Shown: one piece after another, positions 5,420 to 54,600 of the stretch
Position numbering within the stretch: the stretch's first letter is position 1
How the letters are laid out: each line of letters begins with the position of its first letter
From: a virus
Taxonomy: Duplodnaviria; Caudoviricetes
Reading direction: 5' to 3' (one strand)
Virus record (IMG/VR): IMGVR_UViG_3300028886_000082
Coordinates: 1 to 64,000 of that record
DNA: 64,000 bases
Program-made: the position numbers and the translations under genes
The notes under the pieces: generated by a model
Database searches by the model: none
What the model saw: the letters and a program-made list of their open reading frames with translations, nothing else
What the model was told of the DNA's origin: nothing

Positions 5420-5506
5420 GGGAAAGTAGCTCAGTTGGTAGAGCGTCACGATAGGTTGCTGGACATCAGTGCCTGAAGGTCGCAGGTTCGAGTCCTGCCT
5501 TTCTCA
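5420..5506 (+). tRNA. tRNA-like RNA with an expanded (21-nt) anticodon loop; isotype undetermined
   Basis: Acceptor GGGAAAG/CTTTCTC, D arm GCTC-AGTTGGTA-GAGC, variable AGGTC, T arm GCAGG-TTCGAGT-CCTGC; anticodon stem TCACG/CCTGA encloses 21 nt; no encoded CCA. Confidence 0.75.
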
Positions 5507-5640
5507 CAATCAGACACACCAAGTCCCAATAGTGCGAATGGGGATATATCGAATGTTTTCATGGCTGATTACAAGCTTGGCGAGTCTTTATACGTGGTCT
5601 TTGACTTATTGGTTTACATGATGAACGTGGAAAAGGCCAC

Positions 5641-19894: not shown

Positions 19895-21568
19895 ATGGGA
19901 ATAGCAATTTTAGTAGTAGCAGTCCTTGCAATAGCAGGAGCAGTAGTGTGGTTCTTCTTGAAGAACAAGAAAGAGCCAAGTGTTAAACCAGAGAAGCCCT
20001 CAGAGCCCGTCTCACAGCCTTCCAACCCACCTGTGGATGAAGTGCCAGCAGAAGAGGAGAAAGAGCCTGAGAAGCCAAAGGATGAGGAGATTAAGCCAGT
20101 GGAGGAAGAGAAGCCAGTAATCTCCAAACCAAAGCCTGATGCGCCAAAGCCTCCTGTTGTAGAGGAAAAGCCAAAGTATGACGAGGAGTTTGAGTCTTAT
20201 ATAGGTAAGTATAGCAAATTTGCCAAAATAGAGAGGGATTCTTCAACGTATAAATGGTTCTATGAGTTGTTCCGTGAGGCAAAGAGCCAATTGAGAATAG
20301 ACACCTGTCATGGTTTGCCTATCCTTTTGAAACAAGAGAATTTCCCCACTCTCTATGAATGGGGAGACGAGGGTGATGCACAAAAGGCACAAGATACTCT
20401 TATTGGTTGGCTGTTCTCACTGCAACTTGCAGAATTGAAGCCCTATTACAGGGCTGACATCTTCAAGGTAGGCTATGAGATGGGTGGCTATGACAGGTAT
20501 TCCAATATCTATGGTTGGAAATTTGAGTATGACCCCAACATCATGCGTATATTGGCAGGTGCTATCTACCCTGCAATGAAAGGCTACTGTAAACCTGTGA
20601 CAGAGACTTTAAGAAGAGAGGTGGAAGGCACTCGATATAACAGCACCTTACAGCAGCTCTATGACAACAATAGCCGTGACAATGTTGCTCCAAATGCTTT
20701 CTTCACTGACTTCAGAGTATTCATGCCCACAGCCCCTGCTCCTTATGCCCCTGCTTACTCAAAGAGACCTGACAGGACATACCCCAATGAAGAGAGGGAT
20801 GAGTATGACAACCTCAAAGTGGATAGGCAGATTCATGAAATGATTGTAGAAGCTTATAACCTCAATCAGCCAGAACATTATCAAGAGACTGTGCAGGCAA
20901 TAGCTGACAAGGAAGTAGAAGCCAAACACATGTTTGGCAAGAATAGACAGACCAAGAACTATCAGTTCCACCCTGTATTTGGTGAAGATACCATTGGTAT
21001 TGAATTGCCAGATGAAGGGGAACTTGCCTCATTTGCCTACCTTGCATTCAGGACTGGCAGCTCTTCAAGAGGAATCATGCAGAGTGCAACAACCAATCCA
21101 GTGCAGTATGGAAGATTAAGACCTGGGTGCAGTTGGAATCAGGAGGGAAAGAAGAACTCAACAACAGATGATAGAAGGAATATCCTCACCAACTTTGAGA
21201 TTGAGGATGGTGACGGCTCTCCAACAGGCTACTACGATGCAAATGGTAATTGGGTCTATATGGACAATATCCACAACCCCGAAGAGTATGAGGAATACCA
21301 GAAGAATGCTCTCTATGCCAACTCATACCCAAGTGGTCATTCAAGTGGTATGTTCTGTGCTGCTATGCTTCTGGTGGAACTCATGCCAGACAAAGCAGAT
21401 TTAATCCTGAGAGCTGCAAACCAGTATGCAGTGAACAGGACTATATGCAGGTATCACTGGACAAGTGATACTATCAATGGAAGGGTGTTGGGTTCTGCTA
21501 CCAATGCAGTCTGTCATGCAGCATCTGATTATTACTCAATGCTTGATAAGATAAAGAAGGAACTATGA
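19895..21568 (+). CDS. Membrane-anchored PAP2-superfamily phosphatase (acid phosphatase/haloperoxidase fold)
   Basis: N-terminal TM helix, Pro/Glu/Lys linker; YGRLRP, SYPSGH, NRTICRYHWTSD motifs. Confidence 0.8.
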   Translation: MGIAILVVAVLAIAGAVVWFFLKNKKEPSVKPEKPSEPVSQPSNPPVDEVPAEEEKEPEKPKDEEIKPVEEEKPVISKPKPDAPKPPVVEEKPKYDEEFESYIGKYSKFAKIERDSSTYKWFYELFREAKSQLRIDTCHGLPILLKQENFPTLYEWGDEGDAQKAQDTLIGWLFSLQLAELKPYYRADIFKVGYEMGGYDRYSNIYGWKFEYDPNIMRILAGAIYPAMKGYCKPVTETLRREVEGTRYNSTLQQLYDNNSRDNVAPNAFFTDFRVFMPTAPAPYAPAYSKRPDRTYPNEERDEYDNLKVDRQIHEMIVEAYNLNQPEHYQETVQAIADKEVEAKHMFGKNRQTKNYQFHPVFGEDTIGIELPDEGELASFAYLAFRTGSSSRGIMQSATTNPVQYGRLRPGCSWNQEGKKNSTTDDRRNILTNFEIEDGDGSPTGYYDANGNWVYMDNIHNPEEYEEYQKNALYANSYPSGHSSGMFCAAMLLVELMPDKADLILRAANQYAVNRTICRYHWTSDTINGRVLGSATNAVCHAASDYYSMLDKIKKEL

Positions 21569-28174: not shown

Positions 28175-29893
28175 TTATACGGCTGAGGTATAGCCCGTGT
28201 ACTCTACCCAAGCATTGGTCTGGTACTGCCATACCGTACCTGCCTTATAGGTAACGTCTGGATCGCCGCTTACGGTGAAGTCTGCGGTCAGAGCAACGAT
28301 AGTACCGTTTGCTGGGTTAGATGGAAGCTCTGCGCTTGATACAACCTGTGTACGTGAAGCGGTGTCAGGCAGCGAGTAGATGATGCTGCTTGGGCCTACG
28401 ATGATAGAGTTGTAACCGCGAAGTGCGATACAGTCTGCCTCGTAGTGAATCTCGCGTTTTGCATCGCGAATCTCGCCTGCGCCCTTTGTCATGTCGTTGG
28501 TAAACTCCTTCTCGCCAATCTTCACATAACGGGTAGCACCCTCAAGGTCGAGAACTACGCAGACCTTATCCATGCCGATGGCATCTAGACCCTGATCCCA
28601 AGTGAAATCGGTTGTACCGAATGTGGTCTTGAGGCGCTTGAAGTCGATATCCAGCTCCTTAACATCCTCCATCTTGATGATGCGCTTGTTGTCGCCCATG
28701 TCGAGGTTCAACAGCCACTGCATAAAGGTAGAACCGCAGAATGCGTATGAATGAGAGTTCTGAGAGAATGTGGTGTGCTGCAGCTTGGAGATAGCGATCA
28801 GGTCACCCACGGTGATGTGGCCATCCTCTACAGAGTAAGAGTTGGTTACCTGCCACAGAATACCCTTAGAGCCGTATGCATCCTCAACACTCTGGTCACC
28901 GTTGATAACTGGGAATCTGGTCTTTGCACCCATCCAGTAGGTACGCTCTGCACGGAGGTTGTAGTTGCGGATGGCGTTGGCCTTTACGTCTGCAATGTGC
29001 CAAGGCATCTTCTTCTTCACCTTCTCGAAGTCGTTAGTCCAAACGATGTTTAGCAACTTCTTCTGTACGGTGAATTCCTCGTAACGTGGCTGGTAGTTCT
29101 CAGGAGTAATGAGCAACTGGCTCTCACCTGCGATACTTGCACCTGCGCAGAGGTAAGCGTTTGCGGGCAGACCCTTATTTGAGCTTACACCATTTGCGCC
29201 AAACTCACGTACCTCGTAGGTGTCGCCTGCGGTTGCACCACTCTTCAGCGGGCCGTTGATAGGAACAACGAGCACATAGCTTGTGGTAACGTCAACAACA
29301 AACAACTCCAAGCAACCCTCTACGGTTGTACCATCCTCAGCGTAACCATCGATGAACGGACAGAAGATCGTAGTGCCCTTGTAGAATGCCTTGAGAGAAC
29401 CTGTAAAGTTAGAGGTTGTCAGCTTCAAACTTCCGTCAGTCTCTTGTGTGATGGCACTTGAAGTACGACCATCCAGTGTATCACCACCAATGCGTGCATG
29501 CTTTATCGACCAGTTCTGAATCTGGACTTTGCGTGCGACACGACGCGCAATGGATAGTAAGGGCGTACGCCACGGCTGAAACTGTGTAATACCCTTATCC
29601 CACTCGTCGTCGATGTTGTCCTCGCGGCGCTGCTGCGAAGAACTCAGCTGTGTTCCGTTCAAGGTCTCACCTACAGTACCGTCACCGGGAATGTGAAGGT
29701 CATTGTTGGCAGGGTTTGCCGGCTCGTTGGCAGCGACCTCAGAAGCCGTTGCTGGAAGTGCGCCCTCATCGCCAATAGGTGCATCATTCACTACGGTAGC
29801 GGTTGCCATTGCTCCACCACCACTGACTACGGCAAGGACAAACAGCGCAAAGCTGAGGACTTGCCAAATGTTCACGTTCTTAATCTTTTTCAT
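28175..29893 (-). CDS. Major capsid protein (SU10/DUF5309-like HK97 fold) with an N-terminal hydrophobic helix
   Basis: 572 aa after the scaffold gene; TPLLSI, NYNLRAERTYWMG, AFCG, FGTTDF, VVLDL motifs resemble this family. Confidence 0.72.
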   Translation of the reverse strand: MKKIKNVNIWQVLSFALFVLAVVSGGGAMATATVVNDAPIGDEGALPATASEVAANEPANPANNDLHIPGDGTVGETLNGTQLSSSQQRREDNIDDEWDKGITQFQPWRTPLLSIARRVARKVQIQNWSIKHARIGGDTLDGRTSSAITQETDGSLKLTTSNFTGSLKAFYKGTTIFCPFIDGYAEDGTTVEGCLELFVVDVTTSYVLVVPINGPLKSGATAGDTYEVREFGANGVSSNKGLPANAYLCAGASIAGESQLLITPENYQPRYEEFTVQKKLLNIVWTNDFEKVKKKMPWHIADVKANAIRNYNLRAERTYWMGAKTRFPVINGDQSVEDAYGSKGILWQVTNSYSVEDGHITVGDLIAISKLQHTTFSQNSHSYAFCGSTFMQWLLNLDMGDNKRIIKMEDVKELDIDFKRLKTTFGTTDFTWDQGLDAIGMDKVCVVLDLEGATRYVKIGEKEFTNDMTKGAGEIRDAKREIHYEADCIALRGYNSIIVGPSSIIYSLPDTASRTQVVSSAELPSNPANGTIVALTADFTVSGDPDVTYKAGTVWQYQTNAWVEYTGYTSAV

Positions 29894-29923
29894 TTTACTA
29901 GGATTTTTATTTTGTTCTCGGAT

Positions 29924-30706
29924 TTAATATCCCCATTTCTTCATATCACCAAAGTCCATTGACATGCTCTTTTTCTTCTGCTTCGGAGCAACCGACTGAC
30001 CGCCATTCTGCGAGAATGAAGGTGGAACCTGCTGCTCGTCGAAAGTCTTGAGCTTGTTGGTATGCTTCTCGTTACGTGCCTGCATAGCAGCCTCTTCACG
30101 TGCATTGGCCATGTCCTGATTGTAGTTCATGGCGTGCATGATGGCAGTCCATGTATCTTTGCTTACCTCTCCGCTGAATGCAGGAAGCCAAACCTCATCC
30201 CAGAAGTATTCGAACATACGGTTTTTCTGCTCGTCACTCAGACCTACTTCGGCCTGCAGTGCGTCAAGCTCTTCGATACTTCTTGCGATGGCCTCGTCCT
30301 TTGCCTGCTCTGCGGCTTCTCCTTCGGCCTGCTTCTTCGTCCATTCGTCAAAAGCACCCGTGACTTTATCCATCACCTCCGGGTCTTCTAGTGCGGCCTT
30401 GATGTCGATGCCGTTCTTGGCCATCCATACAAGTGGGTTCTCTTCATCATCCATCAGCATAGCGCCAATCCAACGATGCTTGTCTAGGATGCCGGAAAGC
30501 TTCTTGCCCGATTCACGTAGTCCGCGATAACGCTCACGTTCTTCTGCCATGCGTCCGTAGCGTGCCTCCTTATCCTCAAAGTCCACATCGGGATTATCCT
30601 CTGCAAACATCGAAGAATAGCGGTCACGGTTAGGCCTTGCTGGCTGCTCGGTAGGCTGCTGTGCTACAGCGGCTCCCTGCTCCAATGGTTTCTTTTCTTC
30701 TGCCAT
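29924..30706 (-). CDS. Capsid scaffolding protein
   Basis: 260 aa, acidic and helical, immediately upstream of the capsid gene. Confidence 0.65.
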   Translation of the reverse strand: MAEEKKPLEQGAAVAQQPTEQPARPNRDRYSSMFAEDNPDVDFEDKEARYGRMAEERERYRGLRESGKKLSGILDKHRWIGAMLMDDEENPLVWMAKNGIDIKAALEDPEVMDKVTGAFDEWTKKQAEGEAAEQAKDEAIARSIEELDALQAEVGLSDEQKNRMFEYFWDEVWLPAFSGEVSKDTWTAIMHAMNYNQDMANAREEAAMQARNEKHTNKLKTFDEQQVPPSFSQNGGQSVAPKQKKKSMSMDFGDMKKWGY

Positions 30707-30730
30707 ATAATATTGTGAAAATTTTCACGG

Positions 30731-30830
30731 CAAATATATAATATGTCGTGAAAGTCTTTTCCGTTTCCGAACCTCTGATTTGTGCTAACTTCGGACTCGG
30801 AATAAAAAGAGTGTCTTTCGCCTATTTTTG
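30731..30830. promoter_or_regulatory. Bidirectional late promoter with palindromic activator-like site
   Basis: TCCGTTTCCGA-N19-TTCGGACTCGGA with a -7 box (TATTTTTG +, TATATTTG -) 21 nt from each side. Confidence 0.7.
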
Positions 30831-30852
30831 CGGCATAAATCAGAGATAAGAA

Positions 30853-32835
30853 ATGGCTAAGATAAGAGCTTTATCATCGGTAATGCCAAAGGGCGCAATC
30901 CACGATTCGGTACGCAACCGCAAGCGTCAGTCGGTTGTGTCGAATGGCTTGCGTGTCAGAAAGCGCCGCCGCAAGGATTATGACTTCTTTCTACGCTGTC
31001 AGCAGGCTTGGAATAATCTTGAAGATGTCCGCCAGACCCGTGAACGTGTAAAGCAGTATGTCTATGGCGACCAGTGGAGTGACGTGATTCAATATCGTTA
31101 CGGGCAGATAACAGAGCGCAAGTATATACAGCTTAAAGGCAACGTACCACTGCAGAACAACATCATGATTTCGATCCTGAACTCTGTTGTCGGCCTTTAT
31201 GCAAAGCAGGCAGGCGAACCAAACTGTTTCGCAGTAAAGAAAAACGCGCAGTGGCTATCAGATATGATGAGCGCAACGATGCAGATGTGCTGGCAGAAAA
31301 CCTACATGAGCGATGCGCTTAAAACAGCTTTTGAAGATTTCCTTTTAGGAGGTGTTGCCGTATCAAGAGAGACGTATGAAGAAAATTTCGGATACAAGGA
31401 CGCATGGACTGGCTTCATAAACCCAAACAAGGCTTTCTGGGAGGCTGGCTCCGATGTAAGGATGTCTGACTTGCGGCTTGTAGGTGCTCTCTATGATGTT
31501 GCGCCAGGCGAACTATACAGAAAGTTCTGTAACAGCAAGTATGGATGGACGGTAGAAGAGATTAACGATGTCTTTGACATTGACAAAACCGACTATCATA
31601 GATATTACCGTTCTTCCGGCTTGCAGCAGAATGAAGAGGAAAGCCTAGACATGCTGAGTTTTGACAAGCCTTCTAACGACTCAATGTGCCGACTTATAGA
31701 GGTTTGGACGAAGGAGAGCAAGACGCGCTACCAATGCTACGACCCACTGGCCGAGAATGGCGACGAAGTGGAGTATCGCGTAGAGGTAAAGGATATATGG
31801 CATGTGGATCAGGAGAACCAGCTTCGCATACAACAATATAAGGAGGTTGGAGTACCAGAAGAGGAATGGGCACTGATAGAATACGAGCTTATAGAAGATG
31901 AATATTGGTACTACACCTACATGGCTCCAGATGGTACAATCATAGCCGAGGGTGAAAATCCATATGAGACGAAAGACCAGCCGTTCACTATCAAGCTATA
32001 TCCATACGTAAACAGCGAGGTACACCCGTTCATGGGCAATATCATCGACCAGCAGCGTTACATCAACCGCCTTATCATTATGCACGACATGGCGGCACGC
32101 TCTGCTGCAAAGGGACTCACAATCTTCCCGATTGAGTCTATACCAGACGGTATGACAAAAGAGGATATTGCAGACGAAATGACGGAGTACGACGGAATCC
32201 TATTCTTCGAGACAAACAGGATGAACCCGAACCTGCGCCCAGAGATCATTTCTTCTGGTGCAGTGCAACTTGGTACGCAGGAACTCTTGCAGATGCAGCT
32301 TAACCTTGCCAGAGATATTACCAATGTATCTGGAGCACTCCAAGGCAAGACACCTTCTGCGGGAACATCAGCTGCGCGTTACATGCAGGAAACACAGAAC
32401 GCCACTACCTCGCTAGAATCTATCATGCAGGACTTCACTTCATTCTCCGAGCAGATTGCAAGGAAGAAATGTATGTTCATCAAGCAGTTCTACCGCAACG
32501 GGCGACTTGTCACAAACAAGGACAACACGGTACTGTTCGACTATGACCGCATGTCATGCCGTGACGTGGATTTCTCAATCAACATCAAGGATTCTGCCAA
32601 GACTGCAGCCTTCCAGACCTATGCCAACGATACGGCACTACAACTTCTGCAGGGCGGCTTCATAAACATCAAGCAGTATCTCTCTTCTGTCACCATTCCG
32701 TTTGCAGACGATCTCTTGCAGCTTATCGAGCGCGACGAGGCACAGCAGATGGCTATTCAGCAGCAGTTGGCCGCAATGGGTGGAGCCGACCAGCAGCAAG
32801 TCGCTAACGCACAACAAATGTTACAAGCAGCATGA
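30853..32835 (+). CDS. Portal protein (P22-like)
   Basis: 660 aa; YVYGDQW, LQNNI, IIDQQRYINRL, VSGALQG; position next to adaptors and terminase. Confidence 0.82.
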   Translation: MAKIRALSSVMPKGAIHDSVRNRKRQSVVSNGLRVRKRRRKDYDFFLRCQQAWNNLEDVRQTRERVKQYVYGDQWSDVIQYRYGQITERKYIQLKGNVPLQNNIMISILNSVVGLYAKQAGEPNCFAVKKNAQWLSDMMSATMQMCWQKTYMSDALKTAFEDFLLGGVAVSRETYEENFGYKDAWTGFINPNKAFWEAGSDVRMSDLRLVGALYDVAPGELYRKFCNSKYGWTVEEINDVFDIDKTDYHRYYRSSGLQQNEEESLDMLSFDKPSNDSMCRLIEVWTKESKTRYQCYDPLAENGDEVEYRVEVKDIWHVDQENQLRIQQYKEVGVPEEEWALIEYELIEDEYWYYTYMAPDGTIIAEGENPYETKDQPFTIKLYPYVNSEVHPFMGNIIDQQRYINRLIIMHDMAARSAAKGLTIFPIESIPDGMTKEDIADEMTEYDGILFFETNRMNPNLRPEIISSGAVQLGTQELLQMQLNLARDITNVSGALQGKTPSAGTSAARYMQETQNATTSLESIMQDFTSFSEQIARKKCMFIKQFYRNGRLVTNKDNTVLFDYDRMSCRDVDFSINIKDSAKTAAFQTYANDTALQLLQGGFINIKQYLSSVTIPFADDLLQLIERDEAQQMAIQQQLAAMGGADQQQVANAQQMLQAA

Positions 32836-33299
32836 CAATAACAGTAGCAACAGTTATATCGGCAATCAAGCGCCACCTCTCTATCATTGGAAAGCGGCTC
32901 TACTCTAAGGACGGAAAGAACATGTTTTCGGACATCACGCTTTCATCAGCCGAAGAAACGCAGATTCTCACGCAGTACATCAATGCCTCTGCACAAGACG
33001 TAGAGGCCGTGTTGAAGCAGTTTATCACGGCTTCTACCTATTCGGCTTCTACCATTAGCATGACGATTGCAAATACCCGTGGCGATTCTGATTTTGAGGC
33101 TCGCTCGCAATCACTTGGCGAGTCGTACATCACCCTAAATTCCGTTGGCGAATACCTCTCCATGATGCACCCTGACCTTGCAGCAAAGTATCAGCGCGAT
33201 GCTCGTCAACGCATTGAATCTCTGGTAGAATATGTGTTCTACAAAAAACCGCCTACAGCTACGGCTAGCCAAACAAGCGGAACAGCAACAGTATCATAA
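32832..33299 (+). CDS. Head-tail ring/adaptor paralog 1
   Basis: Ends KKPPTATASQTSGTATVS, shared with the next gene. Confidence 0.55.
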   Translation: MTITVATVISAIKRHLSIIGKRLYSKDGKNMFSDITLSSAEETQILTQYINASAQDVEAVLKQFITASTYSASTISMTIANTRGDSDFEARSQSLGESYITLNSVGEYLSMMHPDLAAKYQRDARQRIESLVEYVFYKKPPTATASQTSGTATVS

Positions 33300-33317
33300 T
33301 AAAAACAATATTTCAAT

Positions 33318-33842
33318 ATGGCAACTCTTACTATTACATTGGACAAAGCGGCTGTAATCGAAGCCGTGAAGGGCGATACATACATCACCAGCAGCGTAGA
33401 TCGTGGCGCCGACTCCGTAAAGAACGCTGGCGTAGCATATAACGAGGCTGCAGGTGATGATGCTCACCACGACAAGAAAATTGAACGTTTCATTAAGTCG
33501 GCTGTGTCGAAGTTTGCTGCAGAACTGGCAGAGTTTATTGATACGGCTTCGGGCGGTAGTATTACGACATCTATTCCAACGAGTGCGACTGGAAATATTA
33601 CTATTGCTTTGACTGTTACAAGCCGATATAACTCTGGACTGGCTGATCCACTTTCCGGTATCGCACAGGAGTATATCGTCAATATGACGCTCTATGGATG
33701 GTGGATGTCTATCAAACCGGAACTGGCCAAGAACTTTGCCGCTCTAGCTACCGACGCTCTCGTCTATGTCCGCAAGTGCTTCGCAAAGACCGCACCAACG
33801 GCAACAGCATCTCAAACATCAGCAACTGGTTCAGTAGCATAA
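33318..33842 (+). CDS. Head-tail ring/adaptor paralog 2
   Basis: EYIVNMTLYGWW; ends KTAPTATASQTSATGSVA. Confidence 0.55.
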   Translation: MATLTITLDKAAVIEAVKGDTYITSSVDRGADSVKNAGVAYNEAAGDDAHHDKKIERFIKSAVSKFAAELAEFIDTASGGSITTSIPTSATGNITIALTVTSRYNSGLADPLSGIAQEYIVNMTLYGWWMSIKPELAKNFAALATDALVYVRKCFAKTAPTATASQTSATGSVA

Positions 33843-33845
33843 GGT

Positions 33846-34607
33846 ATGAATAAGACTATCACATTAACATTAGTAAAGTCTGTTATTCTTGCTAACGTCA
33901 AGAATGAGACTTTCTTTCGTGGGCAAGTCGTAAAAGCGGCTGACCAGAAGCTTATCACAGAAGCCTATCACGAACAGGCAGGTGATGAGGCTTATCAGGA
34001 AGCGATTCTCAACCGAGGTCTCTATACGAACCTCGAAGAGTTGAAGACACATTTCTCCGACTATCTCACATCAACGGGACAGTCGTCTGGGGATAACATC
34101 AACTCCGAGGAATCTGACGGAAATATTGTTCTTCAACTCAAAGTAAGCGACCGCTTCAATGGTGGGTATGTAGACTCACTTGCAAAGCTTTCCGCAAAGT
34201 ATATCGAGGAATCTATGCTGATGGATTGGTGGAAACCCATCAACGAAAAGCAGTCTGCCCTTTATGCCCAATTCGTAGAACGTGACTTAGCCGCCATTAA
34301 ACGATGCTTCAACAAGACAGCCCCCGTCGCTCCTACCTACAGATATACTACCTCGCTCAATGTCGTTGGCTCCGCAATAGATATAGGCATTGGCGAAGAG
34401 CATACCGTCACCTACTCAATATCGGATGGCGCTATCGACGATATTGAAGTACGTATTGAGGATACGCACATCTGCCAGGCAGGACGCACACAAGAAGGCT
34501 TTACAGTTATCGGCAAGCAGCTTGGCCATACCTATATCCAGATGTATTCACGTCACGACGAACAGCTCACAAAGACTATTCACGTCTATGTCACTGACCA
34601 GTCTTAA
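33846..34607 (+). CDS. Head-tail ring/adaptor paralog 3 with a C-terminal Ig-like extension
   Basis: KYIEESMLMDWW, FNKTAP; beta-rich tail. Confidence 0.55.
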   Translation: MNKTITLTLVKSVILANVKNETFFRGQVVKAADQKLITEAYHEQAGDEAYQEAILNRGLYTNLEELKTHFSDYLTSTGQSSGDNINSEESDGNIVLQLKVSDRFNGGYVDSLAKLSAKYIEESMLMDWWKPINEKQSALYAQFVERDLAAIKRCFNKTAPVAPTYRYTTSLNVVGSAIDIGIGEEHTVTYSISDGAIDDIEVRIEDTHICQAGRTQEGFTVIGKQLGHTYIQMYSRHDEQLTKTIHVYVTDQS

Positions 34608-34616
34608 TATATAATA

Positions 34617-35264
34617 ATGTATATGGATTTACTTCATAGCAAAGAACAGGGAGGCTACAAGCCTATCGACCTGTATCAAGGCCGACCCAAGCCTAACGAC
34701 AATTGGCCTTATCACAATCACCCAACGACTCCGCACGACCGTGAGTTTGGTGTCAAAGACCCGAAGTTTGAGCGTCATATCTTCATCGGGCGCGACGATT
34801 TGTTTTTTGATATAAACTCACAAGTGCAGATGGTGGCTGAGGCACGTCCAAAGCAGGACGGTTCGATAGACAATACGCTTGTTGAGGGTGTAGAGAAGTT
34901 CCGTTCGATGTTCTACCGCTGGATCGACACGTATATCGGTAAGGCCAAAACCATCATGTCTGCGTTTGTTCTGGAGAAATTCCGTGAGATTGCCATCAAC
35001 TCCATCAAGGATGTGGATGAGGTGGATATCACGATGCTCATGCCCGAATGGTACGACGATACTACGTGGCAGCAACTATGCAATGAGGTCCATAGTTATG
35101 TGGTAAACGCCACGCTTTTCGAGTACTTCAAACTAAAACTTACGTCAAAAGACCCGGTAACGGTCGATAAGAACGAGGCCATGATGTTCGGAGAGTCCGA
35201 AATCCGCAAGCTTTGTAATGCTAACAAGGCAGGAACTATCCATAAAAAGTTTAAGCCATTTTGA
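34617..35264 (+). CDS. Head-tail ring/adaptor paralog 4
   Basis: HSYVVNATLFEYF. Confidence 0.5.
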   Translation: MYMDLLHSKEQGGYKPIDLYQGRPKPNDNWPYHNHPTTPHDREFGVKDPKFERHIFIGRDDLFFDINSQVQMVAEARPKQDGSIDNTLVEGVEKFRSMFYRWIDTYIGKAKTIMSAFVLEKFREIAINSIKDVDEVDITMLMPEWYDDTTWQQLCNEVHSYVVNATLFEYFKLKLTSKDPVTVDKNEAMMFGESEIRKLCNANKAGTIHKKFKPF

Positions 35265-35779
35265 TGAAAGATAAGGTTATAAGGTTAGTAGTTAGTTTGT
35301 TGTTGGTGGGGTCGTATTTCTTTCTTCCGAAGTACGGCTTCACCGCTTTTGATGGTTCTGTAAACGCACATATCATAGCCACCCATCTGCTATACCCGTT
35401 TTCTCATGCCAACATCTGGCATTTGGCTGCAAATATTCTTTGCCTTTGGATGATTCCTTGCCGACTTTATATATTCGCAACATACGTAATAGCGGTTTTG
35501 TGTTCATTCCTTCCGTCATTCTGTATTTACGACAGCATCGTCCAAGGTGGTTTTGCTGCCTTGAAAAGTCCCACCTACGGATTCTCCGGGGTACTATTTG
35601 CAATAGTTGGCATCTCATGGGGTAAGGTTCACAGATTCCGTGATATGATTTGGAAGAACAGGTGGTATCTTGTCGTACCAGCCTTCCTTCCTCACGTCAA
35701 CTTTCTCATACACACCTACTGCCTCCTTGCAGGCTATCTATATGGAACGTTATGCGCAAAGAAATCAAAGAACTCATAG
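35264..35779 (+). CDS. Rhomboid-family intramembrane serine protease
   Basis: YPFSHANIWHLAAN loop motif, catalytic GFSG, His in the last TM (IHTYCLLAG), multiple TM helices. Confidence 0.85.
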   Translation: MKDKVIRLVVSLLLVGSYFFLPKYGFTAFDGSVNAHIIATHLLYPFSHANIWHLAANILCLWMIPCRLYIFATYVIAVLCSFLPSFCIYDSIVQGGFAALKSPTYGFSGVLFAIVGISWGKVHRFRDMIWKNRWYLVVPAFLPHVNFLIHTYCLLAGYLYGTLCAKKSKNS

Positions 35780-37920
35780 ACGAGAATCATAACCGCCGTA
35801 TGAAGATTTACGGCCCCTATGACCAGCTATCGGGCATAGGCTGCTATGGTTTCGCCGAAGGTATGCGCACACACGTCAGCATCCCCGACTTCTTTCTTGG
35901 CGACCAGGAGATAACGGATATGTGGGTGCATAAGGAAACGCTTGAAACGGCCATTTGGTACAATGTCCTGCAGTATGGCTCCATACAGAAGTTCGTAGAG
36001 AATCATCTTCATCGTGACTTCGACGAAGAGTATCATTTCGAGGTGATTACCGCTCTTCTGCAGGCGCGTGCATACGATGATCCTGAATTGGCCTTTATTA
36101 TCTGCGACAAGATTGTACACAAGCTGACTGGTAGCCTTACGCCTTTCACGCCTCGATATGCCCAGCGTGTGCTCATTGCTCTGCTTGAAGGCCTGCGCCG
36201 CAGTGGAGTGCCTATCCTTGTAGTGCTTCTGAAAGCCCGTCAGTGGGGAGGCTCCACCCTTGTTCAGATGTACATCAAGTGGATGCAGGAGTATCGCCAC
36301 CCGAGCGGATGGAATGCAGCTATCGTTGCGCAGGCAGATTCCACCGCCAAGAAGATCAAGGCTATGTACCGCAAGGCCGTTGAGTCTCAGCCGGGATGGA
36401 CGATAGGCATGCCAGGCACTAAGCTTGAAATGTCTCCTTATGAGCGTTCCGATTCAGACTTCCAGATATCCGACGGTAAGTTCCTCGCCCGTACCTCACT
36501 GCTTTCAATCGCTTCGTTCAACTCGTTTGAAAAGTGCCGTGGCGATAACTACAAGCTGGTACACTATTCAGAGGTGGCCTCATGGAAGAAGACACCCGAA
36601 CACGACCCAGAGGAAGTGATCTCCAACCTTGAAGGTGGATTCCTTGGTCTGCCCGACGAATTGGCGGTCTTCGAATCTACTGGCAAGGGTAATTCGGGCT
36701 TCTTCTATGACTTGTGTCAAGATGCAATGCGAGAGGATTCCACCTCTGCTTATAAGTTCCTGTTCATTCCTTGCTACATGATTGAGAATGACATGGAGCC
36801 AAAAGGCCCGAACGGGTTCAACCCTGAGCAGGAAGAGAGTTTCGCAATCTGGCTCTTCGATAATCGCAATAAGGATACGTGCCCACCAGGATGGAGAGAG
36901 AGCGGAAAGTTCTTTTGGAAGATGTGGAAGATGGGCGCTTGCTTTGAGGCTATCAACTGGTATCGCATCAATCGTAACAAGCACCGTGATCACGGCCACT
37001 TCGCTTCCGAGGCTCCTATCGACCCCGTTGAGGCTTTCCGTAATTCGGGTAACGCAGTCTTCGATCCCTATGCCATTGATGAACTTAAGGAGGATTGCGA
37101 TGCACCAAAGAAACCGCTCTATTACGCCGACATTATCTTGAAGCCGTTTGAGCAACGCTCACGCTCCGTCTATCGTGAGGCTACCATCCGTCAGCGTGAA
37201 GATAACCAAGGCGAATTGAAGGTGTGGGCAGCACCAAACAATCGGATCTTCAAGGTCAAGAACCGTTACGTGGTGTCAGTGGATATAGGCGGCGCTTCCG
37301 ACAAGGCCGACTATACCGTTATGACTGTTATCGACCAGATGGGATTGTGCCGTGAGGTCAAAGGACGCCCGCGTGTCGTAGCCAGGTGGAGAGGCCATGT
37401 CCGTCACGACATTCTCGCATGGAAGGCTGCTGCCTTGGCACACTTCTACGACGATGCCTTGCTGATTATCGAATCCAATACCGCCGACAGAGAGAAAGAT
37501 ACCAATACCGAAGGCGACCACTTTGGAACCATCATCAATGAGATAGCAAAGTTCTATCCTAATCTCTATCAGCGCAACAAGACGCCCGAATCCGTGCAGG
37601 AAGGTATCGAACCTATCTACGGATTTCAGACCAATGTCAAAACCAAACAGTGGATCATCGACAACCTCATTGCCTGCGTGGATGATAAGCTTTGGGAAGA
37701 GCCCGACGAGCAGATGTATGCGGAATTAGGCTGGTACGAGCGTGACCCAGATACGGGAAAGATGGGCAACCAGCCTGGCTCAAACCGCCATGATGACGTA
37801 CTCATGTCAACCGCTATCGGCCTCTATGTCTGCTACAATAACGACATCTACCGCCCATCATGGAACAACGAGCGTCCACGTCAGCGCGACCACACTCTCC
37901 CCATCGAGTCCACTTTCTAA
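35752..37920 (+). CDS. terL: Terminase large subunit
   Basis: KARQWGGST Walker A, HYSEVA Walker B, FESTGKG, VSVDIGG and HDDVLMS nuclease motifs; likely ATG at 35752. Confidence 0.9.
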   Translation: MRKEIKELIDENHNRRMKIYGPYDQLSGIGCYGFAEGMRTHVSIPDFFLGDQEITDMWVHKETLETAIWYNVLQYGSIQKFVENHLHRDFDEEYHFEVITALLQARAYDDPELAFIICDKIVHKLTGSLTPFTPRYAQRVLIALLEGLRRSGVPILVVLLKARQWGGSTLVQMYIKWMQEYRHPSGWNAAIVAQADSTAKKIKAMYRKAVESQPGWTIGMPGTKLEMSPYERSDSDFQISDGKFLARTSLLSIASFNSFEKCRGDNYKLVHYSEVASWKKTPEHDPEEVISNLEGGFLGLPDELAVFESTGKGNSGFFYDLCQDAMREDSTSAYKFLFIPCYMIENDMEPKGPNGFNPEQEESFAIWLFDNRNKDTCPPGWRESGKFFWKMWKMGACFEAINWYRINRNKHRDHGHFASEAPIDPVEAFRNSGNAVFDPYAIDELKEDCDAPKKPLYYADIILKPFEQRSRSVYREATIRQREDNQGELKVWAAPNNRIFKVKNRYVVSVDIGGASDKADYTVMTVIDQMGLCREVKGRPRVVARWRGHVRHDILAWKAAALAHFYDDALLIIESNTADREKDTNTEGDHFGTIINEIAKFYPNLYQRNKTPESVQEGIEPIYGFQTNVKTKQWIIDNLIACVDDKLWEEPDEQMYAELGWYERDPDTGKMGNQPGSNRHDDVLMSTAIGLYVCYNNDIYRPSWNNERPRQRDHTLPIESTF

Positions 37921-41391: not shown

Positions 41392-41751
41392 CTAATCTTC
41401 CTCTTCTCTCTTCAATGGTAAAGGTTCCGGCTTCACTTCCTCATATGGCGTGTAGGCTCCCTTGTCTTGCAAAGGTATTCTGCTTCTTACCAATGCCTGC
41501 AGGTCGTCACGGTCTTTCTGTCTGCTGATGTTGATGTTGATCTCGCTCTGCTTCACGATACCCATCTTTACCGACTCCAGGTATAGCTTTGCCCACTGAA
41601 CGGGCGCATTCTCGCGTATCAATTCCATCGTCTCGCTAAACAATGAAAAGTTCTCTTCCGTCCAATTGGCCATCATCCCCTGAACAGTGTCCGACAACTT
41701 GGCTACTGCTCTCGAACCTCGGTTCCTTCTGACATCTTTTCCAACATCCAT
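41392..41751 (-). CDS. Hypothetical protein (possibly terminase small subunit-like)
   Basis: 119 aa helical; start uncertain. Confidence 0.4.
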   Translation of the reverse strand: MDVGKDVRRNRGSRAVAKLSDTVQGMMANWTEENFSLFSETMELIRENAPVQWAKLYLESVKMGIVKQSEININISRQKDRDDLQALVRSRIPLQDKGAYTPYEEVKPEPLPLKREEED

Positions 41752-42239
41752 TTCTTTCTCTCCTTACTCTTTTTGCGATTTTTCTCACGGGTGTTAACGT
41801 ATGATGGCAGCTTAGCATCTATCACCTTTCCGTTTTCATCGAACACGCCATTCTTGATAAAACCCCTGATGATGCTCCCTCTTATCGGACTGATAAAGAA
41901 CTTGGGCGCAGGCTGTATCACTGCAAACTTCATGATGTAGCTTAGGCTCTTGCCTATAAACTCACGCTTCTCCGACAACTCCTGCACCACCTTGAACAGA
42001 GAGTAGTACATTTCCCGTCTCAGGGGAAGCATCATATCCACCCTGCTAAAATCACCCTTCACCATCAATGCAATGTTCTGACTGGCTTGCCGGGGCGAGA
42101 TGTAGTAGCGTGGGGCTGGTTCATTGACCATGCGCTCGTAGGCCTGATGTTGCGACCAGCAATTGCCGCATACGCGCTTGTAAGCGGCTATGAGGTCTTG
42201 CTGCATCTGCTTCGATATGTCGTAATTCACTTTGCCCAT
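41703..42239 (-). CDS. Basic hypothetical protein, candidate late-gene regulator
   Basis: 178 aa; PAPRYYISP / PAPKFFISP internal repeat; promoter carries an ACGGAA/TTCCGT palindrome. Confidence 0.55.
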   Translation of the reverse strand: MGKVNYDISKQMQQDLIAAYKRVCGNCWSQHQAYERMVNEPAPRYYISPRQASQNIALMVKGDFSRVDMMLPLRREMYYSLFKVVQELSEKREFIGKSLSYIMKFAVIQPAPKFFISPIRGSIIRGFIKNGVFDENGKVIDAKLPSYVNTREKNRKKSKERKKWMLEKMSEGTEVREQ

Positions 42240-48642: not shown

Positions 48643-51600
48643 CTACTCAATTTGGCCTATCTTGTCAAGCTCTTCAACGACCAATTGCATCTGACTGTTA
48701 TAGAGCGCACGAAGATTCTTGCGGTCTCTTCCAGTAGATTGGTTGGCTGCTGTATTAATTTGCTTGAGTACCTTATCTGCTCTCTTCACAAACTCCATAC
48801 GGACAGCATCATTGGTACTTGCCATCTCCATAGCCTTCATATAGTGGTCTGGGTTGGTGTCAGCGTCTCTCATGTATCCTTTGAAGTCGTGGGCAAACTT
48901 GTTAGCTTCTTGCTGGTACTTATGATACTTTGCCTTTGTGCGGTAAATCTCGGTACGCTCGTCGCCCTGCTGCCAGAACGCTCTTGCAAACTCTATCTTA
49001 CGGATATTAAAGTCAGGTTCTTCGTCCGTGAAGATTACGTTGTATGCATCTCTTATGGCGGAGCCTGTATTCATAAAGAACTTGCCAGGGCCTCCTGCAT
49101 ACTGTTCGAAGATGTACTGCATTGCGCCTGGGTTTATTTGAGCCCATCCTGCATGAACATCATCGCCACCGCTGACATCGTTCAACCACTTTGAAAGAGA
49201 TATATAGGCAGAGTTGGTATTACCGTATGTCATTTGATACTCTGGTGTGTATTCGTCACCGTTGTATTTGTCCTGACGGAAAATCTGTCTACCCGTCCAA
49301 GAAAGGTTTTCTCCTACGGCTACTAATGGAGCCAGAGGCGAGCAGACTCTTCCTACCACTTCATGCACTGGGTCGTAGTTTGATGTAACCTTTGTCTCAA
49401 AGTCTACAGGTGAGAACACATTGAAGAATCCTATCATCTCGTCCATGAAGTCTTTGTCTACTGGCTTCAAGTTGGGATAGAGCGTGTTTCCTGCTATCAT
49501 GTCTCCAAGTGTATAGAAGGCTGCAAGTTCCTGACCCATCGGTATCACCAAGAAGTCATTCTTCTTACCAGTTGCCCACCCAGTATAGATACATAGGTTC
49601 TTTCTGCGCACCCATTCAGGGAGGTTTGCGTATGGATCATCGTCATCACCGCCTCCAGCAAGACCGTAAAGCAAGTCGTTGATAACAGGCATCAGCATAC
49701 CTAATGCAAATGGTGGTATTGCGTAGTAACCTACGAGTTTACCGACATACGACTTGTTGATGCTGCCGTCTGAATTCCTGATGTTGCGGAAGATGTTGCA
49801 AATGCCTTGTACGGTGGCATTGAAAAACATCTTATTAGCCAAAAGAATCTGTGATACGTTTCCTGCTAACTTCGCAGTACGTGCCACCCATTTCTGTTCG
49901 GTCTTGAATCCAGCCGTATTCTTTCCTGCGCCACGCTTGTTGAAGTTTACCGTCACTTCCTTTGCATCGTAGGCAGAACGTGCCTTCGTGCGGCCTGCCA
50001 CATGTCTTGATGCCCTATAGGTGGCAAAGCGGGCATTGTTCTCTATTGCTTCGTTGGCTGCTTCAAGTGCGCCAAGCGTCTTATCCCAGAAAGCGCTGCC
50101 CACCTTCTTGACTTTGCCTGGCGTGCTTATCATCTTCTGGATATCCCTCTGCAGCTCTTCTACCTTTTTCATGTGAACGAATCCCGTGATACCTCCACTA
50201 TCCATGAAGTCCTTGAAGTCACGTTCCATTTCGTTCCTCATGTCAAGCTTACCCTCACGATACTTCTTGAAGAGTGATATCATCTTTGGAAGCTGTTCAA
50301 AGTAATAGCCTTGTGCTGCCTTTTCGTAGTTTCCACCTTCACGGGCCATGAGAATAGCGCCGAAGTGAGTCCAGTCGCGAGCCATGTTTCGCCCCAAGAA
50401 TGTAACGTTATAGGATGTACTTACAGACTGCATATAATACTTTGCATCGGCAATGAAAGAATCAAGTGGGCCATCGCCATGCTTGTATCTGAGCTGACCG
50501 TTAAGCGCCTGAGCCATTCTCGGATTGCCCATCACGACCATAGTCTTGCGGTTGCCGTTCATCATCACCTCAACGATGTGTTCTCGTTTATGCTCCTTAT
50601 CCACCTTGTAATCGAATTTGGCATCACTCTTAACCTTCTTGGCCTTGCCTTCAAGTTCTAATTTGTTCATGCGTTCATAGAACTCTTTCGTCCTAGCCTC
50701 AACCTCCTGCGGCTTCATATCCTCATTAATCTGTGGATAGTCTGTTACCCATTCATCGGTAGTCGGGTCAAGAACTGCCCAAGTGTCGTTTATTTCCACA
50801 AGGTCATTTGGATTGGCCTGGCAGAGACGGTAGAACTTCTGCTTTACCATGTTCTGCTCTCCGTCCGAAATTGCTTTATAGGTCATGGCAAACAGCGTAG
50901 CGAGCGGATATCCTGCCTCGCTCTTACGGCCAGCGGCATTTTTCAGCAGACCACCTAATCTGCTTGCTCCGTCTTTGACGGTCATATATTGCCAATGGTC
51001 TTCAGATGATGTGTCATTAGAATAGCCTCTCATCGGAACGTAGAAGTGGAACATATTCGTGACACGTTTGTAGGTCGAGTCGCTTATCATGCCCGACTCA
51101 CGATACTTGTCAAGGCCAAGCTGAGAGCAGAGGTTTATCTTGCTCCACATCTTATCCATGAGTTCCTTGCCCATCTTCTGCTCGTCATTCATAAGTTTAT
51201 CAAGGATATCCTTCTCCTTGAAATCCTCACCGAACATTTCTGTGAAACCTGATGCGTCGTGTTCTTCGGCATCAAACTCTTCATCTATATTGTCGTGAAT
51301 GAAATTATCGATGGCATCCAGATATTCGGGGAAGGTTTTCTTGCCTTCCATCAAGTCTTGGTAGGCTTGCTCCTTGGCTTCTACATAACTGTTCTCCAAC
51401 TTGTCAAGCTGCTCCTGCCATAGCTTATCCAGAGCCTGATCGAGTTTCTTGTTCTTCTGTTCTTCGGTGATGTCACCATCCTCGAACTGCTCTTCAAGCC
51501 GTTCGGCAATCTTGTCGTAGGCTTCTTGCTGTTCATCGTCCAGATCGTCATAAGTGACATTCTTTCTTCGCTGACCCTTTAGCCAGTCTCTTACGAACAA

Positions 51601-54600
51601 CTCACGATTGCGCTCAAATCCATGCTTGGTGAATAGGTATCGGTCAACATCGCCAGTCTGCCAGCCCATTTTTCGGCACACCTCATAAACGGTTTCCTCT
51701 AATGGTCGCTTGTAGATGTCCGTGAATTGCTCTTGCTGATTGTAAATCCTACCATACGAAAGATTCATTGCTTGGTAGGCATTCTGCGAATCGGGTATAT
51801 CCTTATCTTTGGCAATGGCATTCTGACCATGCTTAAAGGTTACCATATCATCCTGAGCGGCCTCTTGCATCATCGTGCTCGCCCTGTTGATACGGTCATG
51901 ATATACCGCCTTTGCGGAATTCTTGTCTATCTCCTTGACACCTTCCTTCTGTTCTTTACGGAACTTGATCCAGCGTTTAGCGGATTGCTCTATTGCTTGG
52001 ATGGGGTCTTCCGGTAGTTCGGATTCCTCTTCAGGGCGTATGACGTTATCTCCCCGTCCTTGTCCCTGTTGACTACTTCCACGAACCTCGGTTGCTGATG
52101 TCTGTTCTCCTTCGCCAATTCGTCGAAGTTGATTGTTTCCTGCGTTTGTACTTTCTTGTCTGCCATTTTTAATATGATTTCTTAGTTCGTTTGCAAAGTT
52201 ACAAATTTCTGGATTACCAACAAAGTTTCCATTCAAAAACTTTTCAGTTCCATAGCTATCAATGGCTACGTTACCTATTAGGAATGCACATGATTCATTG
52301 AACCAGTCGTATCTCTCGTAGTTGCCAGGCTTTGTGATATGATTGAATATATCAGGACGGTTTACCCTCAACCATTCATAGCAAGCCTCTCCAAACTTAC
52401 GGCGTACATCTTCGGGCATTTTCTGCCAGAAGCTATGCGTCTGCTCATGCCACCATGCAGCCTCTGCCTCCTTTGCATCCTCCAGATGTTCTCCGAATAC
52501 GACTACTATACCCGCTCTTGGTATGTAAGCCGCTCCGTTGTCTGGGTCGCTGTAAAGCCTCTCTATCTCTCTATACACACGTCTGCTGACCTTATCTTTG
52601 AGAGCTTCAAGGTCTTGTGGGCTATTGATAGTATATGTCGGTGCGCTACCCTTCAAATCCTCACGGCTTGCAAGGCTATTCACCATATCAGATATTTCCT
52701 GCAATTTGCTATTGGTGGGAGTTTTGCCATTAGACTGCCGCCAACTCTCTGCTGCTTGATTGATAGCTTCTATCGGATCAGAGGTTGTTATCATGCGCTT
52801 GGGAGCGTCGCTGTCTTCCTTGGCACTCTCAACGGTCACGCCTAGCTCGTCGAGACGCTTTAAGATGGCATCGAGGTTCCTTGCAGGGAAGTCTGCGCTC
52901 ATCTTTGTGCTTCCCTCAAACTGACCATCAACGAAGCTAAGGAGCGTTTCGTCATTAAAATACTTCTCACCTTTTTTCTTTGATTTAGGAACTTGAAGCG
53001 TATATCCATACGCATCATTGCGCCAATCGTATCTACCTCGTTTGACTGTTACGTCACCATCGGCAGAAACAATCTTGTTGTCCTTTTCAAAATCGTCTAG
53101 GTCATTCTTAGCAGAAGATATAGGATTCTTGCTCGTCAGCGCCTTCGGGTCGAACTGATCTGACATCAGGATACCTTGACGGATCTCGCCCGTATCTGTA
53201 GTATATGAAATCAGTTTACCGCCTTTTCCTTGACTACGGAGTGAGGTAAGTGCTTTCAGCAGATTACCCGTGATAATGTGTCCTTTCTTTCTGGTTGCCG
53301 TTGAAGTAAGTTTATCCCAGTTATCTACGTTCTGCTCCAATACCTTTTGCATGTTGGCAAGGTTAGAGCCAAACATTCCGTTTCTAGTCTGTGCTGTCTG
53401 CTGAACAATGATAGGCTTGATGTCACGCTTCTCTCCATTATTCTGCTTAACCATGCCGCTAATAGGAATGGTAATCTTTCTGCGCCCGTCGAGCGTAGCA
53501 AACGTAATTGTACTAGCAGTGGTAGAATAGTTATCTTCCTTTATATTGATGTCTATCACCTTACCAAAACTTGGTTCAAAGGTCAACTGTGAAAGGTCGT
53601 AGATGTCAGTAGGCAATGCATACACACCATCGGTAGAGAAAGTTTCAAGTGCATCTACGAATGCTTGCTTCTGTTTATCAACAGCTTCAAGAGCATTCTG
53701 CAGTTTCTCCATCTCTTGCTTATAGAAGGTGTCATACTGATACTGAGAGTTCTTCTCTATCTCAGCATCTGTCATGCCATTCTTCTCCTGAGCTTTCTTA
53801 GCACCCTTTGCATACTTTTCTTTCTCGGCCTCGGCTTTCTTTTCGGCTCTCTCGGAAATTGTCTGTGTAGCCTCGGCTTTCTTTTTCTCAGCCCACTTAT
53901 CTACCTTATCAAGTACACCCTGCTTGTATTCATCCCATGTCTTACCTCCAAGGAGTCTAGTCTGAGACTTCTTCACCTCTTCTGCCTTCATCGGCTTGCG
54001 AAGTACATCCATCTCCACTTCCTCAACGTATGAATTGTCGGCAAATGGATTCTTGCCTCCTGGCTCTACACCTGCTTCCCATACGTCCTTCTTTAAGGTC
54101 TTGGCACGGAGTGGCATTTCTGTAATCTCCAAGTCGTTCTCGCCCATCTCGTTCAGACGGTCTATCTCGGCTTGGTATAGGTCGCCGATTTCTTTCAGCA
54201 TCTTCTCCTGCTCTTTAACGGTCAATAGTGCCATACGGCCAAGAACCTTGCTTGCGGTTGCTCCATCACCTTGTGCTTTCTGCGCCTGACTAACGAGCGT
54301 TTCTGCAGGAAGTGTCTCTGCTCCCTCTCCCCATTTCAGCGGGTCACACATCTTCATTGCCAAGTCAACGTGCTCTGAAAGATACTGGATAACGATGTCG
54401 TCACCATACTTATTAATAATGTCCTGCACCTGCATCTCGTTAAACTTCGACTTCTGCGAGGATGTGGTATTAGCATCTAGCGAGCGGAGTTTTGCTTTCA
54501 ACATCATCAACAAGCGCTGCTCTGATGGAATCTGAGAGACTACATATTCGTACATACCTCTCAGCACCTGTCCGGTTCTGTCGATACGTCCACGAATCTG

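Follow-up and report, generated by a model that had tools for sequence, protein, structure and literature searches.

Does a tailed phage use an intramembrane protease of its own to handle its capsid protein? This question is raised by a temperate Bacteroidales phage of which we analysed a stretch of 64,000 nucleotides (hereafter the window), i.e., bases 1-64000 of a 74,242-bp IMG/VR virus record (IMGVR_UViG_3300028886_000082) that CheckV rates as complete. In this phage, the major capsid protein (MCP) begins with a hydrophobic leader, and a rhomboid protease is encoded among the head and packaging genes, directly before the gene for the large terminase subunit (terL). A first-pass annotation of the window, made from its letters, had proposed that capsid subunits may be tethered to the membrane and released or matured by the phage's own rhomboid. 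We find that leader and rhomboid are real and conserved, that the catalytic residues are intact and that the two traits are gained and lost together; with a probability of about 0.58, comparison of related genomes further favors a functionally coupled pair in which the membrane-embedded leader would be a substrate of the rhomboid. The features on which the argument turns are listed here by their positions in the window.

28175..29893, minus strand: MCP, 572 amino acids (aa), HK97 fold, distantly related to SU10_MCP proteins
29804..29893, minus strand: MCP leader (codons 1-30) with basic n-region, hydrophobic helix and GGGAMA junction
29600..29803, minus strand: MCP linker (codons ~31-98), acidic and Pro/Gly/Ala-rich, between the leader and the conserved capsid body
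35261..35779, plus strand: rhomboid intramembrane serine protease, 172 aa (PF01694)
35420-35434: codons of rhomboid residues His54 and Asn58
35585-35587: codon of rhomboid residue Ser109
35711-35713: codon of rhomboid residue His151

The capsid leader and the phage rhomboid

The 572-aa protein has no direct Pfam match at E 0.1 or better. BLASTP did, however, connect it to PF17236 proteins of the Bacteroides phages BKO1-TP3 and BF1-TP2 (E 2e-10 and 8e-15, respectively), and its homologues at 48-50% identity carry SU10_MCP (PF17236); the alignment with the SU10_MCP proteins of three cultured Bacteroides phages begins at about residue 99. As a profile search of PDB sequences yielded no capsid match, a fold search was needed. 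An AlphaFold2 (AF2) model of moderate quality (mean pLDDT 62) found HK97-fold phage capsids as its best Foldseek matches, with VP1 capsid at E 4.5e-10 and the crAss001 MCP at E 1.5e-6, along with the SU10 capsid and encapsulins; the protein is thus an HK97-fold capsid protein. The model places a helix at residues 2-25, while residues 25-110 are mostly of low confidence with little secondary structure; within this region, the linker has pLDDT values below 50 and no secondary structure, and a comparably disordered MCP N-terminus is found in relatives that lack the leader.

An exhaustive profile search for the MCP family retrieved 390 members at the 50% cluster level, and the leader is present in 97 of 121 full-length family representatives (50% identity level). 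Nearly all of the 120 closest MCP homologues share one layout, in which 2-5 Lys/Arg residues are followed by a hydrophobic stretch, a Gly-rich break, a hydrophobic residue and then a small residue; three cultured relatives keep this layout though their capsid bodies are only 21-24% identical to that of the window MCP. The hydrophobic N-terminal helix read in the first-pass annotation is neither accidental nor an artefact of upstream sequence, and it is kept at the protein level in homologues down to ~20% identity, with an open frame and the hydrophobic and charge patterns preserved in hundreds of genes. Among the 97 leaders, the N-terminal flank has a mean net charge of +3.4, the uncharged stretch a median length of 18 residues and the 15 residues past it a mean net charge of -2.5; the N-flank is more positive than the C-flank in 97/97 and net positive in 96/97. 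The c-region is Gly-rich and ends small-x-small in most leaders, and the junction residue before the small residue is Met in 84/97, otherwise Ile or Leu. The leader thus has the parts of a Sec-type signal (a positive n-region, a hydrophobic h-region, a helix breaker and small residues at -3 and -1), and its charge pattern predicts a signal peptide or signal anchor with the N-terminus inside the cytoplasm (N-in).

The rhomboid reading frame starts with TTG at 35261, with an ATG one codon on at 35264. Its product scores 35.1 bits against Pfam PF01694 (MEROPS S54; cut-off 22.6), and a six-frame search of the genome gave 33.9 bits. The motifs reported in the first-pass annotation were all found: HxxxxHxxxN in transmembrane helix 2 (TM2) corresponds to H49, H54 and N58, GFSG contains Ser109, and the second catalytic residue is His151. 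We take H49, H54 and N58 to be the oxyanion and TM2 residues and S109 and H151 to be the Ser/His dyad. Since H49, H54, N58, G107, S109, G117 and H151 are invariant in 30 phage homologues that are 20-71% identical to the window protein, the comparison indicates an active enzyme under selection. The AF2 model is confident (pLDDT 92.6, pTM 0.88) and consists of a six-helix core; in a Foldseek search of the PDB its top 34 matches were all GlpG (probability 1.00, TM 0.47-0.61), and matches down to E 0.01 were GlpG rhomboid structures throughout. Structure prediction, which the first-pass annotation had named as a check, thus gave a GlpG-like rhomboid alongside the capsid helix described above. By direct reading, residues 23-48 contain no Trp-Arg (WR motif), and the L1 loop is short; the WR motif in the L1 loop is widely conserved among rhomboids but not universal. 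Lys and Arg residues are concentrated in the N-terminus, L2, L4 and the C-terminus, from which we predict the canonical N-in/C-in layout, its active site facing the periplasm. The gene lies between the ring genes and terL, overlaps the terL start by 28 nt, and is found within the head/packaging cluster in every clade.

Identity as a rhombosortase was considered and rejected. Three phage rhomboids scored 16.2-17.0 bits against the rhombosortase model TIGR03902, far under its cut-off of 84, and touched no other NCBIfam model; moreover, the candidate partner signal is N-terminal, with its parts in reverse order.

As a separate observation, two rhomboid frames contain in-frame stops (four at G105:C1:22010-22489 and one at G103:C1:41228-41716, in the genomes behind loci L539 and L537). 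The MCP leader is still intact in both G105 and G103; G105 is flagged as a provirus, and the stops may represent decay or sequencing error.

Co-occurrence of leader and rhomboid

Whole IMG/VR or GenBank records were searched for a rhomboid with both PF01694 and a profile built from phage rhomboids (A7). The latter was added because PF01694 missed divergent phage rhomboids and hence was rejected as the sole detector: it overlooked G067 and G068, i.e., 2/18 records of the A5 clade, both of which were found with A7 (E 3e-23 and 2e-29). With the two models combined, a rhomboid was found in 75/78 leader-bearing records from five clades, two of the three records without one being incomplete, as compared to 0/32 records of leaderless relatives on the same host order (Fisher p ~1e-24, phylogeny ignored). 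By group, the results were as follows.

Window clade, leader present: rhomboid in 34/36 records, and in 25/25 among records >=90% complete
Cultured TP phages, leader present: rhomboid in 3/3
A5 clade, leader present: rhomboid in 18/18
P0305 group, leader present: rhomboid in 13/13
P0398-like group, leader present: rhomboid in 7/7, two copies with in-frame stops
A4 clade, leader absent: rhomboid in 0/25 with both models (PF01694 and A7)
Five more A4-type records, leader absent: rhomboid in 0/5
G099 and G100 (P0373-like; G100 with terminal repeats), leader absent: rhomboid in 0/2

On the MCP tree, three separate losses of the leader can be seen (the large A4 clade, L433, and G099/G100), each with the rhomboid absent. 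L433 is leaderless although nested in the A5 clade; in this locus a small open reading frame (ORF) runs directly into terL, and the slot that holds the rhomboid in its relatives is empty. No record with a rhomboid but without a leader was encountered among those searched. Host phylum was ruled out as a confounding factor, as the hosts of the leaderless clade (e.g., Prevotella, Muribaculaceae and Duncaniella) are also Bacteroidales, the order of the hosts of the leader-bearing phages. Members of the leaderless subclade nearest the window (P0039, P0041-43, P0047 and P0052) are incomplete contigs in which neither terL nor a rhomboid was seen, and this subclade had no members in IMG/VR or among the species genomes.

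An all-against-all comparison of five genomes gave the same picture from another side. The rhomboid was the sole family present in all three rhomboid-bearing genomes and absent from both leaderless genomes, and of the eight universal families the MCP alone differed in membrane segments. Other phage partners for the rhomboid (the anchor of a PAP2 protein as well as spanin-like and holin-like proteins) were rejected, as none of them has the distribution of the rhomboid across these five genomes. The PAP2 candidate, put forward in the first-pass annotation as an alternative substrate, is a 557-aa protein (19895-21568, plus strand) in which an N-terminal helix followed by Lys-rich residues (N-out type) precedes a long Pro/Glu/Lys-rich linker and a C-terminal PAP2 phosphatase domain, a geometry that would suit a rhomboid; as no PAP2-like family shares the distribution of the rhomboid, this anchor is an unlikely substrate.

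Taken together, the co-occurrence, the co-losses and the unique pattern in the five genomes make a functional link between leader and rhomboid well supported at the level of genome comparison. The correlation across related Bacteroidales phages on which the first-pass proposal depended was hence found, and the start codon downstream of the helix that would have spoken against that proposal was not.

One further observation concerns the capsid genes of the leaderless clade. In L211, L213, L220, L221, L224, L226, L228, L232, L235, L254, L260, L264 and L271, the MCP frame (near locus position 10001) stops after ~50 codons although the protein match runs on and spans ~150-250 nt more than in relatives, a pattern that points to an intron, a small insert or a site of frameshifting within the capsid gene.

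Proposed mechanism, membrane geometry and rival explanations

If leader and rhomboid form a coupled pair, the MCP would be made as a precursor whose first ~30 residues serve as a Sec-type membrane-targeting leader, the phage would supply its own rhomboid from the head/packaging genes, and the membrane-embedded leader would be the substrate of this rhomboid. The rhomboid might itself separate the leader from the capsid body, or it might remove or regulate the leader once a host enzyme has cut the small-x-small junction; either way, processing at the membrane would be part of how these phages build their heads. That the rhomboid is the maturation protease is a tentative suggestion, that it acts after or beside host signal peptidase is rather doubtful, and some other form of coupling has only a slim chance. 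Equally tentative is the fuller proposal that capsid subunits are inserted into the membrane by the N-terminal leader and then freed for head assembly by the phage rhomboid; action of the rhomboid on the leader, insertion of the leader and its removal from the virion protein are each steps that we infer. Of the first-pass proposal of capsid release by the rhomboid, the linkage of the two traits stood, with at least three co-losses, whereas cleavage at GGGA conflicts with the predicted topology.

Several points weigh against this reading. In G090 (locus L527), whose genome is complete and has terminal repeats, the leader is present and the rhomboid missing, with a small ORF abutting terL, and the 13-kb contig L437 shows the same combination in a similar arrangement; the leader is thus not strictly dependent on a phage rhomboid. 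The dependence is asymmetric, in that no rhomboid is seen without a leader whereas some leaders persist in the absence of a phage rhomboid, a pattern that fits a leader that is a rhomboid substrate, with host enzymes able to substitute. Bacteroides has a rhomboid of its own, as seen in control genomes. In addition, the independent evolutionary events are few (three co-losses), and the support is purely comparative. Geometry raises a further difficulty. The known substrates of rhomboids (TatA, Spitz and GlyGly-CTERM proteins) have an N-out helix that is cut near its N-terminal, outer end; an N-in leader (as predicted for 97/97) facing a rhomboid site predicted on the periplasmic side is the reverse of this canonical arrangement, since the conserved junction then falls at the periplasmic, C-terminal end. 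With such a leader, moreover, the capsid body would end up across the membrane from terminase and DNA, outside the cytoplasm, where DNA packaging cannot occur. Finally, the junction also satisfies the small-x-small rule of host signal peptidase I, so that both caveats raised in the first-pass annotation, N-in topology and a signal peptidase motif, were borne out. Ways around the geometry can be envisaged: the flexible juxtamembrane segment might be cleaved as a tethered, loop-like substrate, the rhomboid might act on the leader after the signal peptidase cut, or the leader might enter the membrane in an unusual way; cytoplasmic capsid subunits could also come from translation initiated at the conserved internal Met.

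The chief alternative, which we consider unlikely but by no means negligible, is that the leader is an ordinary Sec signal peptide or anchor handled by host enzymes only (signal peptidase I, host rhomboid), with the phage rhomboid acting elsewhere, most likely on a host membrane protein (in envelope remodelling, lysis timing or exclusion), and with the association of the two traits reflecting shared descent or an indirect need. Much of the above can be read in its favor, including the classical n/h/c layout with its small-x-small junction, the retention of the leader by G090 and L437, the host's own rhomboid, and a geometry that speaks against direct cleavage. There is also a published case of a phage rhomboid classed as accessory, as that of Stenotrophomonas phage DLP5 is listed among 'moron' genes (PMC5834331); it resembles the window enzyme in being phage-encoded but, judged by its description, its annotation is that of an accessory gene only, connected neither to head genes nor to a capsid leader. 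By contrast, descent alone can hardly account for co-losses that occurred three times independently while no rhomboid-only genome was met; an enzyme directed at the host would be expected to outlast the leader in some cases, and the rhomboid sits between the genes for the probable small (terS) and the large terminase subunits rather than among accessory genes.

Two other explanations concern the reading frames themselves. The capsid subunit could start at the conserved internal Met, such that the long form with the leader would be a minor, membrane-directed isoform with a role of its own and the rhomboid would act on this isoform or on nothing; we regard this as improbable. Leaderless family members start exactly at the conserved Met(-Ala) position of the leader junction, as though the leader had been added in front of an ancestral start. 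This match favors an internal start, as do the replacements for Met at the junction, since Leu (TTG) and Ile (ATT, ATC) are encoded by near-cognate start codons, and the public gene calls, some of which begin the MCP at the internal Met or within the leader (L434:1547-1645, P0299, P0102 and P0307; the internal Met was chosen in P0299 and P0102). A Shine-Dalgarno-driven start at this position was nevertheless rejected, as Shine-Dalgarno-like words before the internal ATG are depleted (5/68 vs. 18.6 expected from synonymous shuffles). Moreover, the internal ATG is preceded by GC-rich Gly codons, whereas the first ATG has the A-rich upstream context that is usual before start codons in Bacteroidetes, and the leader is under clear protein-level constraint across very long distances. 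The same constraint, seen as an open frame with conserved hydrophobic and charge patterns in hundreds of genes, makes it highly improbable that the annotation is an artefact, with the leader representing untranslated upstream sequence or the rhomboid a decayed remnant; the existence of an in-frame downstream Met, and nothing more, speaks for such an error, while the gap between the MCP and the scaffold-like gene is just 30 nt, the catalytic residues of the rhomboid are invariant and its model is confident.

Partial precedents for a coupled leader and rhomboid exist. The nearest in logic is the rhombosortase/GlyGly-CTERM system, in which a dedicated small rhomboid is paired with a signal made up of a Gly-rich motif, a helix and a basic cluster, the pair having been found by co-occurrence (PMC3237569; PMC6219818). 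The phage pair shares the small dedicated enzyme, the three-part signal and the mode of discovery, but its signal is N-terminal and in reverse order (basic cluster, helix, Gly-rich), and the pairing, encoded by a virus, joins the enzyme to a single capsid protein, whereas a rhombosortase serves many secreted enzymes. With GlpG and AarA, the phage rhomboid has in common the six-helix core, the Ser/His dyad, the TM2 HxxxN motif, the predicted N-in/C-in topology and a GlpG-like fold; it differs in having no cytoplasmic domain and in its short L1 loop without the WR motif. AarA removes an N-terminal extension of TatA in Providencia, and a bacterial rhomboid can hence mature a protein by N-terminal trimming; the candidate site in the phage, however, is C-terminal to an N-in helix, the reverse of the TatA geometry.

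Among phages, T4 proheads are assembled on the inner membrane (portal gp20 with gp40) and come free once the prohead protease gp21 has cut, and they thus set a precedent for heads that are built at the membrane before proteolysis; the T4 protease, however, is soluble and internal, and the membrane link is made by the portal rather than by the capsid protein. In HK97 the delta domain is cut by the prohead protease, and in 80alpha the capsid and scaffold proteins are cut by the host protease Prp, such that an N-terminal MCP extension is removed in maturation, in 80alpha by an enzyme that is not a classical prohead protease; these extensions are soluble and scaffolding-like, or short, and the proteases are cytoplasmic, in contrast to the membrane-signal-like extension and linked intramembrane enzyme found here. 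The pVIII procoat of M13 is cut by host leader peptidase and is thus a capsid protein made with a cleavable membrane leader, as is predicted for the window phage, but M13 is extruded through the membrane, whereas the window phage is a tailed double-stranded DNA phage with a terminase and an HK97-fold shell that has to be filled in the cytoplasm. By analogy, then, T4, HK97, 80alpha and M13 are partial precedents, none of which joins an HK97-fold capsid, a membrane leader and an intramembrane protease.

Gene neighborhood and implications

The window carries genes typical of a temperate phage (an integrase, an S24 repressor, an antirepressor, RecT and an SMC-like ATPase), a head/packaging block and a 5,089-aa polyvalent protein. 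The other genes relevant to the head and to packaging are as follows.

29924..30706, minus strand: scaffold-like protein, 260 aa, in the same operon as the MCP and directly upstream of it (phrog_22323)
30853..32835, plus strand: portal protein (PF16510 P22_portal, E 2e-25; phrog_156)
32832..35264, plus strand: four tandem genes (155, 174, 253 and 215 aa) in the portal-to-rhomboid interval, three of them phrog_19255 paralogues ('ring proteins')
35752..37920, plus strand: large terminase subunit terL, 722 aa (tblastn to annotated phage terL genes)
41703..42239, minus strand: conserved protein of 178 aa, probably the small terminase (family shared by all five compared genomes)

The scaffold-like gene adjoins the MCP gene in 5/5 compared genomes, and a hydrophobic or membrane segment was looked for in its product but not found; the phrog_19255 ring family is likewise present in 5/5. 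For terL there are 642 homologues, many of which are 717-724 aa long and span 100% of the 722-aa reading from the ATG at 35752. The 178-aa protein is, from its position only, the probable terS. In most relatives a small ORF of its family lies directly upstream of the rhomboid-terL pair, or of terL where the rhomboid is missing: the order small ORF, rhomboid, terL is found in L001, L002, L276, L281 and L538, and the order small ORF, terL without a rhomboid in G037, L433, L437 and L527.

The first-pass annotation had recognised no prohead protease, and Pfam and PHROG searches for the S78/U35, S49/ClpP-like, S77 and U9 classes likewise found none among the ~45 window ORFs, where the S24 repressor is the sole peptidase; record bases 64001-74242 lay outside the Pfam scan. 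This is weak support for another route of capsid processing, because scaffold-using podophages such as P22 and T7 have no prohead protease. Assignment of the phage to the Quimbyviridae was found to be unsupported, and the Quimbyviridae paper does not mention a rhomboid.

A number of other features were noted in the window and in related genomes. The polyvalent protein (48643-63912, minus strand) contains LPD38, a Strawberry-notch-type helicase C-terminal domain and an N6-methyltransferase-like domain, and its relatives are 5,779-6,929 aa long; its gene converges on the portal and ring genes in the window phage but lies behind them, reading in their direction, in the closest leaderless relatives. 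ARAGORN called a tRNA-Pro (anticodon AGG) at 5420-5507 on the plus strand. Beyond the window, a probable lysis cassette (G000 bases 65653-66635) encodes a four-helix holin-like protein and a spanin-like protein in which a lipobox-like Cys comes after a membrane helix. A close leaderless relative, L005 (a contig that is also L093), carries a diversity-generating retroelement at L005:17878-20748, downstream of the tail genes, with an Lcl_C-type target, bAvd and a reverse transcriptase.

Heads of tailed phages are thought to be built from soluble cytoplasmic subunits, with proteolysis, if any, by soluble prohead or host proteases. Full-text searches of the literature found no relevant description of a phage rhomboid tied to capsids or of capsid proteins with signal peptides, and the pairing of leader and rhomboid is far from any described capsid maturation system. 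It is also widespread, occurring in hundreds of gut phage genomes, with 515 related loci for one query alone. For annotation, this means that gene calls at the internal Met hide the leader in protein databases and that the Pfam model overlooks divergent phage rhomboids. In the GenBank records of three cultured phages (L001, L002 and L004; PQ571269, PQ571263 and PQ571277), terL is labelled 'tail spike protein' and one rhomboid 'glycoside hydrolase', both likely misannotations. These phages, BF1-TP2, BKO1-TP3 and BS-TP4, grow on cultured Bacteroides hosts (PMC12694917) and make the idea directly testable; the rhomboid goes unmentioned in the paper on the TP isolates.

If the link is mechanistic, it would represent a new route of capsid protein handling, and we know of no membrane-linked head-processing step in tailed phages. 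It would also provide a natural substrate for a bacterial-type rhomboid, of which few are known to us, and possibly a new substrate geometry for the rhomboid family. Should capsid subunits indeed be inserted into the membrane and freed by the phage rhomboid, this would be the first intramembrane-protease-dependent pathway of capsid maturation, with a rhomboid that reads a 'reversed GlyGly' signal at the C-terminal end of an N-in helix.

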